A DNA stretch of 64,000 nucleotides from Flectonema sp. DT1601 (GCA_964019425.1 OZ025804.1:1116001-1180000); one strand, 5' to 3'. Shown: positions 32,120 through 52,132, numbered from the stretch's first letter. Numbers and translations: made by a program. Notes: generated by a model not told the origin, from the sequence alone.

Positions 32120-32566
32120 AAATACTACCGAAATGCTTGTCACAATGGCTCTTGCCGTGCCTTCCGGGAAAGAAGTTAACACTTTTGACATTCGGGTGTG
32201 CCAGAAGCTCGCTTATGACTGTGGCATTCCGAAAGTGTGTGCCACTGTCACACCAGATGTGGATTGGTTTCATGTTCTTCCTGATTAAAGGCATCTCCCA
32301 CAGCTTGCGAAGACATAAATAAGTCACAGCCGCATCTTGATTTGTGTGTGGCAAGAGAAGGTCAATGTACTGTTGTCGAGTTTCATCGTGCAACTTGAAA
32401 TGCATAACTATACCCAGACAACTGTACTTCCCCTGCTGGTAGTAGTGTGATGATGACTCTTGTGGTACCTGTGGCAGGGTACCCTTCTCCTTATAGTCGA
32501 GTGTTATAATTAAGCTATCCCCAGGGTCAGCAGTGTTTTCTGAATAGACTGCATTCTGTCTCTTAA
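32120..32566 (-). mobile_element. Sola-like DDE transposase fragment (catalytic core)
   Basis: LIITLDYKEK ... IHIWCDSGTHFRN ... VNFFPGRHGKSHCDKHFG, matching the D..D..HGK..CD pattern of Sola2/3-type transposases. Confidence 0.7.
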
Positions 32567-34789
32567 ACTGAGTTGAATTTCCAGGTGAGATTTGGACTGT
32601 TAGCTTTTGGCTAAGGCCCTCCCTGAAGAGCAAGAACAAAAAAACTACTCACACCTGAAGAAAACATACACAAAGAACACACTGTAAGCTGTGTGTGTAT
32701 TTTGTGTTTGTCACAACAGGAGAGAAAAGAAAGAATGTCAAGGTTGGTCACCTTGCCTATCAACGCACAACATTGGTGGTCTCTACTAGACCCTGAGTGA
32801 TCCCACTGGATCTCTCATCGTTCATAGTACCCTATGTGAAGTTATAAAATCAAAGGTAAACTATGAACTACAAATGACTTAGCCTGTTATTATAATGCCA
32901 CAGGCAGGCCCTGCATTCAGCAACTATCCAGCAGTGCTTGGATGTCCTGATCTTCTTCTAAAGAAAAGAAAGAAAAACAAAACTGTAGCTGGGATCACTC
33001 AGGATCAACAGACTACCAATGCTACCTGTTGTACTTGCTCACTATGGGGGGTGATGCCAAACACCCAGAAGTACTTAACTACTTTCCTTCTTGCTGCCCA
33101 GGAGTTTCTGACCAGAACTAATAGAAAATAAAAAGTAGATGGGAAACAATAAAAAGTAAAATGGATATAACTGAAGTTAAACAAGACAAATGAAGTAACA
33201 GACCAGAACAGAAAGAGAATTGTAATAGAAGATTACAAATAAAAAAATGCAAGTATCAACACATGATCAGGATACACCAGCAGCTAACAAACAACATAAA
33301 ATTGAAGATCAGTTGCCAGAGTATTTCAACCATGGTAGAATACTCGCCCCTCTGGCAGGGATTATCCCAGACTTGTCCTTTAATTTAGTTGGACACCATG
33401 GCTTACAACCCTTCCAGAGGGAAGCACCATTATGACTTCTATTTTTTTTCTTCAAGAAAATCATAAGGTGGGAACAAAGAAAAATGCTAAGAGGAACCCC
33501 CTATTAACACCTAAGACATCTAAACTGCAGCCCAGCCTATGCCCAATGCACTAACAGGTCATTCCCTCACACTCAGATCAAAAAATCAAAGTTCAGAGTG
33601 CATCTTAGCGTGAATGAGAGAATTTCCTCCCGCTTATTTTGAACAAAAGGGATAGGAGAAGGGATAGAAAACGAACATAAAAATAAAATTCTAAGTGAGA
33701 AACACTTAGCAGAAACACTTAGCAGCTTTTAAGGAGCTGAAAAGCAAAAAAAAAATCTAAGTGAGAAACACTTAGTAGAAACAATTTGTAGCTAATTAAG
33801 CTGAAAATAAAAAAATAAAAAATTTCTAAGTGAAAAATACTTAGCAACTTTTAGAACAAATATTTCAGTAAATAACCTGTAATGATTAAACCATTACAAG
33901 TTTGATGCCAAAACTGACAAGGACTGAGTTGAATTTCCAGGTGAGATTTGGACTGTTAGCTTTTGGCTAAGGCCCTCCCTGAAGAGCAAGAACAAAAAAA
34001 CTACTCACACCTGAAGAAAACATACACAAAGAACACACTGTAAGCTGTGTGTGTATTTTGTGTTTGTCACAACAGGAGAGAAAAGAAAGAATGTCAAGGT
34101 TGGTCACCTTGCCTATCAACGCACAACATTGGTGGTCTCTACTAGACCCTGAGTGATCCCACTGGATCTCTCATCGTTCATAGTACCCTATGTGAAGTTA
34201 TAAAATCAAAGGTAAACTATGAACTACAAATGACTTAGCCTGTTATTATAATGCCACAGGCAGGCCCTGCATTCAGCAACTATCCAGCAGTGCTTGGATG
34301 TCCTGATCTTCTTCTAAAGAAAAGAAAGAAAAACAAAACTGTAGCTGGGATCACTCAGGATCAACAGACTACCAATGCTACCTGTTGTACTTGCTCACTA
34401 TGGGGGGTGATGCCAAACACCCAGAAGTACTTAACTACTTTCCTTCTTGCTGCCCAGGAGTTTCTGACCAGAACTAATAGAAAATAAAAAGTAGATGGGA
34501 AACAATAAAAAGTAAAATGGATATAACTGAAGTTAAACAAGACAAATGAAGTAACAGACCAGAACAGAAAGAGAATTGTAATAGAAGATTACAAATAAAA
34601 AAATGCAAGTATCAACACATGATCAGGATACACCAGCAGCTAACAAACAACATAAAATTGAAGATCAGTTGCCAGAGTATTTCAACCATGGTAGAATACT
34701 CGCCCCTCTGGCAGGGATTATCCCAGACTTGTCCTTTAATTTAGTTGGACACCATGGACACTTCTACATGATAATGAACCTCAACAAGT

Positions 34790-36058
34790 TCGATCGACTA
34801 TGTCGATTACTTTCTATTTTCCGTCCTGGTCAAGACGCTAAACTGATTGTTTTTTTTTTTTCAAAATAAAAAAAATATTAAAAAAAAAAAATAAAAAAAA
34901 AAGAATAAACAATGTTATCATTGTTTTTTTTTATCGTTCGACTTTGTCGACTAATTTCTATTTTCCGTTTTTTTTTTTTCTTTGAAAAATAAATAAAAAG
35001 AATTTAAAATAAAAAAAAAAGAATAAACAATGTTATCATTGTTTTTTTTTATCGATCGACTATGTCGATTACTTTCTATTTTCCGTCCTGGTCAAGACGC
35101 TAAACTGATTGTTTTTTTTTCAAAATTAATAAAAAAGAATATAAAAAAAATAAAAAAAAAAAGAATAAACAATGTTATCATTGTTTTTTTTTATCGTTCG
35201 ACTTTGTTGACTAATTTCTATTTTCCATTTTTTTTCTTTTTAAAAATAAATAAAAAGAATTAAAAAAAAAAAAAAAAAGAATAAACAATGTTATCATTGT
35301 TTTTTTTATCGATCGACTATGTCGATTACTTTCTATTTTCCGTCCTGGTCAAGACGCTAAACTGATTGTTTTTTTTTCAAAATTAATAAAAAAGAATATA
35401 AAAAAAATAAAAAAAAAAAGAATAAACAATGTTATCATTGTTTTTTTTTATCGTTCGACTTTGTTGACTAATTTCTATTTTCCATTTTTTTTCTTTTTAA
35501 AAATTAATAAAAAAGAAAAAAAAAAAAAAAAAAAAAAAGGAATAAACAATGTTATCATTGTTTTTTTTTTATCGATCGACTATGTCGATTACTTACTATT
35601 TTCCGTCCTGATCGAGACGCTAAACTGATTGTTTCCTTTTTTTAAATAATAAATAAGAAAAAAAAAAAAAAAAAAAAGAGCATCTCCCTGCTATCCCTCA
35701 TATCCCCACAATAATATTATACCTTTTCATTTTCTCTTTCCTTTTCTGGTCTTTTTTTTTTTCTTTTTTTTTCCTTTTTCATACAACGTTTTTTATTTAT
35801 ATATTTTTTTTTTTTTTTTTTTTTCATGTTTGATTATTTCCTCTTCATTTTTTTTTTTTTTTTTTCTCTGCCTCTCTCTTAATTCTGTTCGTTTCTTTGA
35901 AACGAAAATTCATTTGAATATTATTCCTTGGTCAGCAACCATCATTGTCGCCCTTTGGGCCTGTTAAAAGAAAATAAAAAATAAAAAGAAAGTTTACATC
36001 GGGAATAGGGCAGGAGCCAAAAGCTCCCAGTCCGTTACTTCCCACTTTATCGAAATTC
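34790..36058 (+). mobile_element. Family ST copy 1: ~110/130-bp satellite array plus ~380-bp unique terminal segment
   Basis: Alternating units with hairpins aaacaatg-ttat-cattgttt, atcgac-tat-gtcgat and cgtc..gacg; fixed right end ...ctttatcgaaattc. Confidence 0.85.
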
Positions 36059-36371
36059 GTTGATAAATGACATAGCACTGGTCGTGCACTGGCAGGTAAG
36101 CCACCCTTACTGGACACCATTAGCTGCAACGTCAGCGCACTGGCACGCGCAGCATTCCAAACAGTTAATGAGTAACCACTCTGTCGCTCAACACTGCTAA
36201 GTAGTTTTGACAGTTTCTTTCTAATTGTCTGTCCACACAGGCAGTACGAGCAGACGTCAGTTCGCCGTGCAAGGTGACGATATTCCTTCCCACGCATACG
36301 ACGGTATGTAGATTCTGATATCAGATCACGAATACTGCTGACTTCATAGATAGATTTAAATGTTCCAAGGA
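36059..36371 (-). mobile_element. Sola-like transposase fragment (RTDVCSYC zinc-binding region); duplicated at 44305-44617
   Basis: ISESTYRRMRGKEYRHLARRTDVCSYC resembles the TD.C..C motif upstream of the Sola DDE; joins neighbouring fragments in frame. Confidence 0.6.
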
Positions 36372-51437: not shown

Positions 51438-51468
<31 letters not shown>

Positions 51469-51660
51469 CTCTGCCTCTCTCTTAATTCTGTTCGTTTCTT
51501 TGAAACGAAAATTCATTTGAATATTATTCCTTGGTCAGCAACCATCATTGTCGCCCTTTGGGCCTGTTAAAAAAAAATAAAAATAAAAAGAAAGTTTACA
51601 TCGGGAATAGGGCAGGAGCCAAAAGCTCCCAGTCCGTTACTTCCCACTTTATCGAAATTC
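48538..51660 (+). mobile_element. Family ST copy 4, inserted into an R copy and itself interrupted by a MITE
   Basis: R breaks after ttttagaacaaa (48537) and resumes (aa)taattaagtaaataacc (51661). Confidence 0.85.
50600..51376. mobile_element. 777-bp non-autonomous TIR DNA transposon (MITE-like)
   Basis: Perfect 27-bp TIRs cagtcattccttttttttgcgaacaaa / tttgttcgcaaaaaaaaggaatgactg; ATATATAT on both flanks; empty site present in the other ST copies. Confidence 0.9.
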
Positions 51661-52132
51661 AATAATTAAGTAAATAACCTGTTGAAATGGTAGTTAATGT
51701 AACCATTACAGGTTTGATGCCAAAACTGACAAAGAATGAGTTAAGTTACCAGGTGAGATTTGGACTGTTAGCTTTTGGCTAAGGCCCTCCCTGAAGAGCA
51801 AGAACAAAAAAAACTACTCACACCTGAAGAAAACATACACAAAGAACACACTGTAAGCTGTGTGTGTATTTTGTGTTTGTCACAACAGGAGAGAAAAGAA
51901 AGAATGTCAAGGTTGGTCACCTTGCCTATCAACGCACAACATTGGTGGTCTCTACTAGACCCTGAGTGATCCCACTGGATCTCTCATCGTTCATAGTACC
52001 TATGTGAAGTTATAAAAGTCATTGACTACTGAAGGGACAATTGACTTCCACAGCACTGGTATCCCCACAACCCTCAGAAGCATAGCAGTAACATCACCCC
52101 CAGAAAGGCATTAAAAAACAAATTTGCAACTG

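Follow-up and report, generated by a model that had tools for sequence, protein, structure and literature searches.

Introduction

Some short and long interspersed elements (SINEs and LINEs) form pairs that share a 3' stem-loop tail, and Sola elements carry terminal inverted repeats and make a short target-site duplication (TSD) of 4 bp. Penelope-like elements, as described in excerpts of PMC8557442, undergo 5' truncation, form partial tandems with pseudo-long terminal repeats (pseudo-LTRs), include non-autonomous head-to-tail forms that share 3' ends, and comprise clades, Naiad and Chlamys, without canonical hammerhead ribozymes; an insertion of the element Pen2 without a TSD, joined by microhomology, is described in a passage of PMC3846280. 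For R2-type elements, excerpts of PMC2718515 report target-primed insertion without a TSD and with a loss of 0-2 nt of target, 5' junctions that are precise, microhomologous or furnished with extra letters, and a reverse transcriptase (RT) that jumps end-to-end between templates and could make tandems. Here, we analyzed a 64,000-nt stretch of DNA from Flectonema sp. DT1601 (GCA_964019425.1 OZ025804.1:1116001-1180000; hereafter the window, with coordinates counted from its first letter), in which a transposase-like gene is split into five islands by two non-coding repeat families, R and S.

The gene is cut at four sites by R and S, which are likely 5'-truncated copies of retroposons inserted by target-primed reverse transcription (TPRT) with near-blunt cleavage, a reading to which we assign a probability of roughly 0.55. 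TPRT is suggested because each repeat keeps one end, marked by a hairpin, is cut short at the other, joins its target through microhomology or a few extra letters, and makes no TSD. These features point to non-autonomous Penelope-like or R2-type elements as the systems that R and S resemble most.

The setting calls to mind Diplonema papillatum, for which excerpts of PMC10161547 describe gene clusters set apart by long repeat regions rich in transposable elements (TEs), ~3600 scattered 28S pieces that each amount to up to 10% of the gene, RT genes of the SLACS, R2, jockey and LINE-1 types, and open reading frames (ORFs) of Helitron-like character.

Five islands of a dead transposase-like gene

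The remnants of the gene lie on the minus strand over 20 kb. A search with the island that we call E returned P0001, an intact relative of 673 aa that is 99% identical to it, as well as the relatives P0002-P0006. Numbered by the residues of P0001, the islands are:

52018-52110, minus strand: island A, residues 61-91 (tblastn 100% over 31 aa)
52111-52135: stretch of ~25 nt 5' of island A, of uncertain origin
46812-47090, minus strand: island B, residues ~92-184; identical copy at 38566-38844
44305-44617, minus strand: island C, residues 185 to ~290; identical copy at 36059-36371
43007-43036, minus strand: island D, residues ~291-299; identical copy at 34761-34790
32118-32569, minus strand: island E, residues 300-450, with motifs DYKEK, WCDSGTHF and HGKSHCD

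With P0001 as the query, tblastn recovered the islands in order on the minus strand at 98-100% identity (residues 61-91 at 52110-52018, 91-184 at 47094-46813 and 38848-38567, 185-282 at 44618-44325 and 36372-36079, and 300-450 at 32570-32118), island D being too short for this method and recognized in translation only. Residues 1-60 and 451-673 of P0001 had no match in the window in tblastn searches up to E 50. Joined at the boundaries that P0001 indicates, the islands add up to 1167 nt against 1170 expected, and the frame passes from 0 to 2 to 1 and back to 0 through three separate 1-nt deficits, one where A meets B, one within island C (residues 282/283) and one where C meets D, as read from the P0001 protein and not from its DNA. 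Judged by this alignment, the islands are one gene, collinear with residues 61-450 of its 673-aa relative, and the window copy is a dead gene fragment, as both ends are absent and three 1-nt deficits are present. Since 283 of its residues are absent from the window, P0001 stems from another locus.

A preliminary description of this DNA, made from the sequence alone, had likewise assigned the islands to one gene, and the tblastn alignment bears this out; translation at its coordinates reproduced the peptides that it quoted and the identity of 46815-47089 with 38569-38843. Its boundaries were off by 1-4 nt with respect to P0001, which reads VVND-T-IVK, TLQ-NV-LGT and ARP-AAMSFINQ-LVEVHYHVE-E-FKRQ where the earlier joints gave NDF/IVK, TLQ/ILG and LCHLST/LVEVHYHVEV/FKRQ. 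Its assertion that the islands restore one reading frame without any deletion fails on the three deficits.

The intervening repeats R and S

R is a non-coding sequence with a period of 1356 nt, whose common form consists of 833 + 523 + 833 nt and whose inserts are partial tandems of 0.1-1.7 units (159, ~655, ~1642, 2191, 2194 and 2344 nt). S, also non-coding, combines a unique tail of ~400 nt with 3.4 to ~11 units of an AT-rich satellite of 254-257 bp. Subscripts name the flanking islands where an insert lies between two of them, and MITE stands for a miniature inverted-repeat transposable element:

29019-29675, minus strand: R_a, ~655 nt, cut short, adjoining the first gene of the minus-strand cluster
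29676-29775: spacer of 100 nt between R_a and R_b
29776-32119, minus strand: R_b, 2344 nt or 1.73 units, its variable end abutting the broken 3' end of the gene
32570-34760, minus strand: R_DE, 2191 nt between islands D and E, with two identical 833-nt repeats
44618-46811, minus strand: R_BC, 2194 nt between islands B and C, exact at the protein level; copy at 36372-38565
47091-47248, minus strand: Rx159, a further copy (158-159 nt) of the R fixed end that separates R_AB from island B; duplicated at 38845-39002
47250-48537, minus strand: main part of R_AB, covering phase 2-1292 in a BLAST comparison with the R reference; its fixed end is 47250
51664-52017, minus strand: upstream part of R_AB, made up of phase ~1293-1356 and ~279 nt from the start of the following unit; island A adjoins its variable (5') end
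43037-44304, plus strand: S1, 1268 nt between islands C and D, the target lacking 1 nt; copy at 34791-36058
39268-42436, plus strand: S2, 3169 nt, inside an R terminal repeat (39004-39267 + 42437-43006) that forms the joint of a tandem duplication
48538-51663, plus strand: S3, nested in R_AB at R phase ~1292 and holding the MITE
50600-51376: MITE of 777 bp, nested in the S3 tail, with perfect 27-bp terminal inverted repeats starting CAGTCATTCC
33925-39003: copy 1 of the tandem duplication (R repeat, D, S1, C, R_BC, B, Rx159); copy 2 is 39004-47249 minus S2

All R pieces are ~99% alike. The two repeats within one insert differ at 0/833 positions in R_DE, 4/831 in R_BC and 6/832 in R_b, most inserts differ from one another at 7-11 positions, and the repeats of R_DE and R_AB differ at 1/829. 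Every R copy keeps the end ...CCTGGAAATTCAACTCA (minus strand): all R matches in BLAST have one orientation and start at phase 1-2, and the opposite end differs from copy to copy, at phases 159, 655, ~279, ~835, ~838 and 989. At other loci, represented by contigs from sequencing runs, loose ends leave R on its variable side at phases 350, 625, 1187 and 1322 and at its fixed end once, among the matches listed. The joints from unit to unit are identical in all R copies, and therefore the tandem was inherited from the template and not remade at each insertion. The same polarity is seen in S, every copy of which keeps the end ...CTTTATCGAAATTC(A) (plus strand) and varies at the other: the three copies share their start, stop within the satellite at three different positions, and never return from the satellite to the tail.

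The MITE nested in S3 is flanked by a perfect 8-bp TSD, ATATATAT, the length of which we take to suggest a hAT-type origin.

The 20-kb span of the gene was enlarged by a tandem duplication of ~5.08 kb, which doubles islands B-D, and by a later S insert of 3.2 kb. With S2 removed, the copies of the duplication measure 5079 and 5077 nt, are separated by 8 substitutions and 6 gap columns, and each have an R repeat at their start. Unequal recombination between the R_DE and R_AB repeats is the likely source of this duplication, and S2 would then have landed in the repeat at its joint.

Insertion sites

Flanking repeats were sought with boundaries shifted by up to +/-6 nt at the six testable R and S sites, the MITE serving as the positive control. 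None of the six sites carries a TSD (best flanking repeat 3-4 nt), and the MITE returned its perfect 8-nt repeat at shift 0. The preliminary description was thus right to view the DNA between the islands as inserted repeats that lack TSDs.

The inserts abut the islands directly. A search of sequencing runs had 16 matches, no RNA run being listed. Of the contigs compared with 32000-35200, one from run X1 joins position 32569 to 34761 with 0 ambiguous letters, skipping 2191 nt, and represents a precise empty site for R_DE; it continues past 34789 into gene-like sequence and not into S, and therefore S1 is an insertion. This contig comes from a diverged relative; the listed piece of 95 nt is roughly 90% alike, with 3 gaps and 8 differing letters. 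For the remaining sites we used the residues of P0001 (A/B, B/C and C/D) or uninterrupted R copies (S2 and S3) as empty-site references. Only the B/C and D/E junctions, both occupied by R, are exact, the former at the protein level and the latter at the DNA level, whereas 1 nt, or possibly 2, is missing at both A/B and C/D; the insertions can thus be called scarless, as had been proposed, at two of the four gene sites. Compared with uninterrupted R, S2 exchanged 1 nt for 2 and S3 is exact within 0-2 ambiguous A's. Among the variable-end joints, B/C shows 3 nt of microhomology, E/R_b 1-2 nt and A/R_AB none; at D/E there are three extra letters. Overall, 0-2 nt of target were lost, and variable ends were joined with 0-3 nt of microhomology or 2-3 extra letters. 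No common target motif was seen by eye at the eight junctions. R and S also insert into each other (S2 and S3 lie within R copies), and both occur at other loci, as contig loose ends among the matches listed attest.

A shared module at the fixed ends

If the fixed end is taken as 3', R is a minus-strand and S a plus-strand sequence. The terminal ~55 nt of the two families can be aligned, an alignment that contains an 11-mer and a 6-mer, and by the fixed ends both have the block AGGGC..AGCCAAAAGCT..CAGTCC...GAAATTCA. The motif GCCAAAAGCTNNCAGTCC occurs 18 times in the window, 14 times in R (minus) and four times in S (plus), with 0 matches expected by chance. All four sequences that we folded gave the same predicted three-tier hairpin, with the loop CAAAA and the middle stem GGGC/GUCC. 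The inner stem is UUAGC/GCUAA in R and GGAGC/GCUCC in S, which amounts to two compensatory pairs, and the outer stems differ in sequence between R and S with the pairing kept. Compared with shuffled sequences, the energy of the S hairpin has z scores of -2.8 and -2.9.

The encoded protein

Pfam scans of the islands and of P0001-P0003 gave nothing significant, and sequence searches of the PDB, with a single protein and with a profile, gave no match. A full HMMER pass collected 489 cluster representatives at E <=1e-3, 102 at <=1e-10 and 22 at <=1e-30, most matches covering residues ~285-478. In 68 aligned homologues H297, D324, D407, G438, K439 and D443 are invariant, and D223, C225, C228, K326, W405, H411, F412, H437, H445 and F446 nearly so. 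An AlphaFold2 model built from the 68 sequences (mean predicted local distance difference test, pLDDT, 85.2; predicted template modeling score, pTM, 0.72), which supersedes a poor model from six sequences (pLDDT 50), arranges residues 319-457 in the RNase-H-like order b1-b2-b3-a1-b4-a2-b5-a3 around three aspartates. The top Foldseek matches, all weak (best E 1.7e-3), are IstA, Tn5, the integrases of HIV, PFV and RSV, SETMAR and the P element transposase; the six-sequence model had retrieved Hermes, integrases and Mos1. D324, D407 and D443 supply the three conserved acidic residues that, together with the fold, characterize DDE/D enzymes in general, and the C-terminus of P0001 carries a C-x2-C-x4-H-x4-C knuckle. 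The alignment and the model support a transposase-like protein with an RNase-H fold and an invariant D-D-D triad.

By profile matches, this protein belongs to a large family distantly linked to DUF7869, which 11 of the 68 homologues match at E <=0.05 (best 6.2e-6). P0001 itself had no match to DUF7869, and the three of 39 that are listed individually scored 20.0-21.2 bits, below the curated cut-off of 26 bits; a literature search found DUF7869 named nowhere. Matches in the protein atlas (rotifer and fungal clusters, DUF7869) all scored below 0.9 and serve as leads only, and a metagenome scan with P0001 yielded one locus of 25% identity in which the standard code gives no open frame and which we did not use. 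The label Sola, which the preliminary description had attached to the protein, is unconfirmed, the window copy showing neither element ends nor a TSD. Like Sola elements, whose RNase-H domains have no Pfam model according to an excerpt of PMC5751038, the gene encodes a eukaryotic protein of the DDE/D RNase-H-fold type that escapes Pfam; unlike them, its only database link is the weak one to DUF7869.

P0004-P0006 are internally deleted relatives, in which the sequence jumps from shortly beyond the region of the first catalytic aspartate (~GKYSCLG) into the C-terminal part with the zinc knuckle, two different frames being used; by sequence they look as deletion derivatives of mobile elements usually do. 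In P0004 (compared with 42054-42239, plus strand), the C-terminal region of the transposase-like ORF runs directly into the unique tail of S in the same orientation, entering it close to the tail start. Two readings offer themselves: S was inserted into P0004 in truncated form, or its tail is part of the element.

Genomic setting

The DNA of the window is eukaryotic. ORFs of at least 110 aa lie almost all on the minus strand at 1.5-29 kb and on the plus strand at 54-64 kb. This strand switch across the repeat block suggests a divergent junction of two unidirectional gene clusters, and the split gene with its R and S inserts lies inside the repeat block between both ORF clusters. An ORF list made for 52500-54700 in search of an RT (without a Pfam scan) held short ORFs only. 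A fragment of 28S rRNA adjoins the broken 5' end of the transposase-like gene:

52136-52525, plus strand: 28S rRNA fragment (Rfam LSU_rRNA_eukarya, 113.5 bits at the gathering threshold and 242.6 bits with alignment)

This piece of ~390 nt corresponds to LSU model positions ~2268-2620, its start lying shortly before the conserved ...CTCTTAAGGTAGCC region, a few nt ahead of ACTCTCTTAAGGTAGCC; its joint with the gene is apparently a short GTCAT-like microhomology, judged by eye.

The locus resembles the TE-rich gaps of D. papillatum, as far as the excerpts of PMC10161547 describe them, in its long repeat block between unidirectional gene arrays, in an isolated 28S piece of ~10%, which by analogy fits the picture of scattered 28S pieces, and in kb-scale tandem ORF arrays. 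The window organism is only distantly related to D. papillatum, however: the best named relative of a neighboring transporter ORF is from this species at 53%, on one protein, and one transcriptome sequence reaches 86%. On these grounds we treat it as a diplonemid-like euglenozoan.

Two further repeat arrays lie in the flanking clusters. At 54354-63677 (plus strand) there are four tandem copies of a unit of ~2.7 kb, 94-98% alike, each with an ORF of 415-452 aa that matches HNH_2 at E ~1e-3, under the cut-off; this array resembles the kb-scale tandem ORF arrays described for Diplonema. At 11194-13278 (minus strand) direct repeats with offsets of 271 and 542 bp, ~92% alike, run through ORFs without a Pfam match and may represent a repetitive protein-coding gene.

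Discussion

In the mechanism that we propose, the fixed end of R and S would be the 3' end of an RNA template, recognized through the hairpin by one RT encoded elsewhere, and the variable end would arise by 5' truncation. R inserts longer than one unit would derive from templates that span a partial tandem, as in the pseudo-LTRs of Penelope-like elements, and a second-strand cut opposite the first would produce insertion without a TSD. The earlier contrast with LINE insertion is misleading, one fixed and one truncated end, the latter with microhomology or extra letters, being the signature of TPRT, here in its TSD-less form.

R shares with Penelope-like elements the pseudo-LTR, a 1356-nt period, 5' truncation, a constant end at phase 1-2 and a range of lengths from 159 to 2344 nt; as in the non-autonomous MRC1 and Chlamys derivatives, to the extent that the published excerpts cover them, a unit is preceded by its own 5'-truncated copy in an LTR-like arrangement of 833 + 523 + 833 nt. 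It differs in that no hammerhead ribozyme, which canonical clades possess, was found in R or S, that neither an inverted copy nor a tail of 30-40 bp was seen in them, and that the window holds no visible RT/GIY-YIG partner. Penelope-like elements also usually make short TSDs, and the absence of TSDs at all six R and S sites is atypical, with one documented parallel in the excerpt of PMC3846280. With R2-type elements, which use a restriction-like endonuclease (RLE), R and S have in common the lack of a TSD, the small target loss and the variable 5' junction, but they contain no ORF and are not site-specific, the eight junction contexts being different and none lying in the 28S piece. The otherwise unrelated R and S resemble SINE/LINE pairs in having ~55 nt in common at the fixed end, among them a hairpin that carries compensatory changes, and differ from typical SINEs in their length of 1.3-3 kb and their richness in tandem repeats. 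An LTR retrotransposon or terminal-repeat retrotransposon in miniature (TRIM) would have both ends fixed, identical LTRs ending TG...CA and a 4-6-bp TSD around them. This reading was rejected, since a TSD is absent and the length varies at one end (2191, 2194, 2344 nt and shorter); the repeats can be read as TGAGTT...ACACCA, yet those of R_b differ at 6/832 positions, about as much as between copies.

Several observations weigh against retroposition. Most TPRT elements do make TSDs. The six independent R events all point one way and the three S events the opposite way, where simple random insertion predicts otherwise, and they do so even though both families have one 3' module in common. The ends of two independent R inserts (2191 and 2194 nt) lie a few nt apart, an odd coincidence under random 5' truncation. 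The R hairpin is no more stable than shuffled sequences (z -0.6 and 0.05), and the covariation is based on two families only. All 18 matches of the shared motif lie in R or S, so that no RT or endonuclease gene in the window bears the 3' module; no ribozyme, tRNA-like part, other RNA family or poly(A)/microsatellite tail was found in R or S, and no ribozyme appeared among the five weak Rfam matches (E <=5) in 32000-39300 or, window-wide, at the gathering threshold. The empty site at the DNA level concerns one site and comes from a diverged relative, and this highly repetitive locus could be partly misassembled.

A polar mechanism at the DNA level, be it rolling-circle transposition of the Helitron/HUH-like kind or one-ended replicative transposition starting at the fixed end, is an unlikely alternative, although it would account for several of these features: insertion without a TSD is typical of such elements, a hairpin stands near one terminus, and rolling round a 1356-bp circle would yield R inserts of more than one unit, the inserts of 1.2-1.7 units all beginning at one phase. 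With the fixed end as the start, however, the hairpin is at the wrong terminus, the S satellite does not lead back into the tail, and the R unit joints are inherited. Helitrons insert between A and T and have a 5' TC and a 3' CTRR. R and S have host dinucleotides G^A and G^T (R) and T^G (S1) and ends TGAGTT.../...ACCA or ...ATTCA, which led us to reject a Helitron even though Helitron-like ORFs are known from Diplonema (excerpt of PMC10161547).

The density of insertions led the preliminary description to propose a scarless mechanism that targets a strong local hotspot in the transposase ORF or its family. Four sites within 1.17 kb of gene, a fifth R at its broken end, the absence of inserts from ~40 kb of flanking genes, and the passage of P0004, another family member, from the transposase C-terminal region into the S tail speak for such targeting, which we nonetheless hold to be quite unlikely: the junctions share no visible motif, S entered R twice instead of the gene, R is flanked by other sequence in other runs, only two of the four gene sites are scarless, and purifying selection in a gene-dense, cluster-transcribed genome yields the same clustering. 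It is simpler to suppose that dead DNA tolerates insertions, and a hotspot is unneeded. The density would reflect a dead element in a repeat-rich gap, and such a permissive niche explains it better than a hotspot because the cluster lies between divergent gene clusters in a diplonemid-like genome. A true preference of R and S for the transposase-like family is conceivable, given the S sequence in P0004.

Improbable, too, is that nearby R and S sequences were copied as filler into double-strand breaks by microhomology-mediated template switching, of the type termed microhomology-mediated break-induced replication or fork stalling and template switching (MMBIR/FoSTeS). Microhomology of 0-3 nt and a few extra letters at the joints, the lack of TSDs, donors that all lie within the same 23 kb, and a joint between the gene and the 28S piece that also looks microhomology-like by eye would suit this process, but all six R and all three S events keep exactly one terminus, which is unexpected for random templated filler, and at B/C and D/E the target is rejoined exactly, with nothing lost.

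That R and S derive, as non-autonomous forms, from the same element that they split, the S tail and hairpin being the native 3' end of the D-D-D element, we regard as very doubtful, although the transposase-like ORF of P0004 enters the S tail at its start and in the same orientation. If this were true, an RNase-H-fold enzyme with a CCHC knuckle would drive polar, TSD-less insertion with one fixed end, homing into its own family and forming partial tandems, a mode of transposition not described for DDE/D enzymes.

It is scarcely credible that R and S are removable, as introner-like introns or as germline-limited sequences eliminated from a gene still expressed: their removal nearly restores the coding sequence and R_DE can be read by eye as GT...AG at the cost of one codon, but R_BC and the nest between A and B have no GT...AG ends, the copy lacks both gene ends and has three 1-nt deficits, and P0001 is another locus.

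Under the retroposition that we favor, young repeats, likely retroposed and free of TSDs, have piled up within a dead transposase gene, a nested graveyard whose occupants are all of kinds already known. The preliminary description thus holds for most of what it observed and goes too far in what it inferred. The locus provides a well-resolved case of transposons decaying inside one another in a protist lineage that has been little studied and reveals neither a new insertion mechanism nor a site-specific hotspot. The analysis adds a large family of D-D-D proteins (489 cluster representatives at E <=1e-3) and documents two young repeat families, with copies ~99% alike, as inserting without a TSD. 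The 3' hairpin module that these families share is a handle for finding the enzyme that mobilizes them in diplonemid-like genomes, in which repeats make up about half of the DNA.

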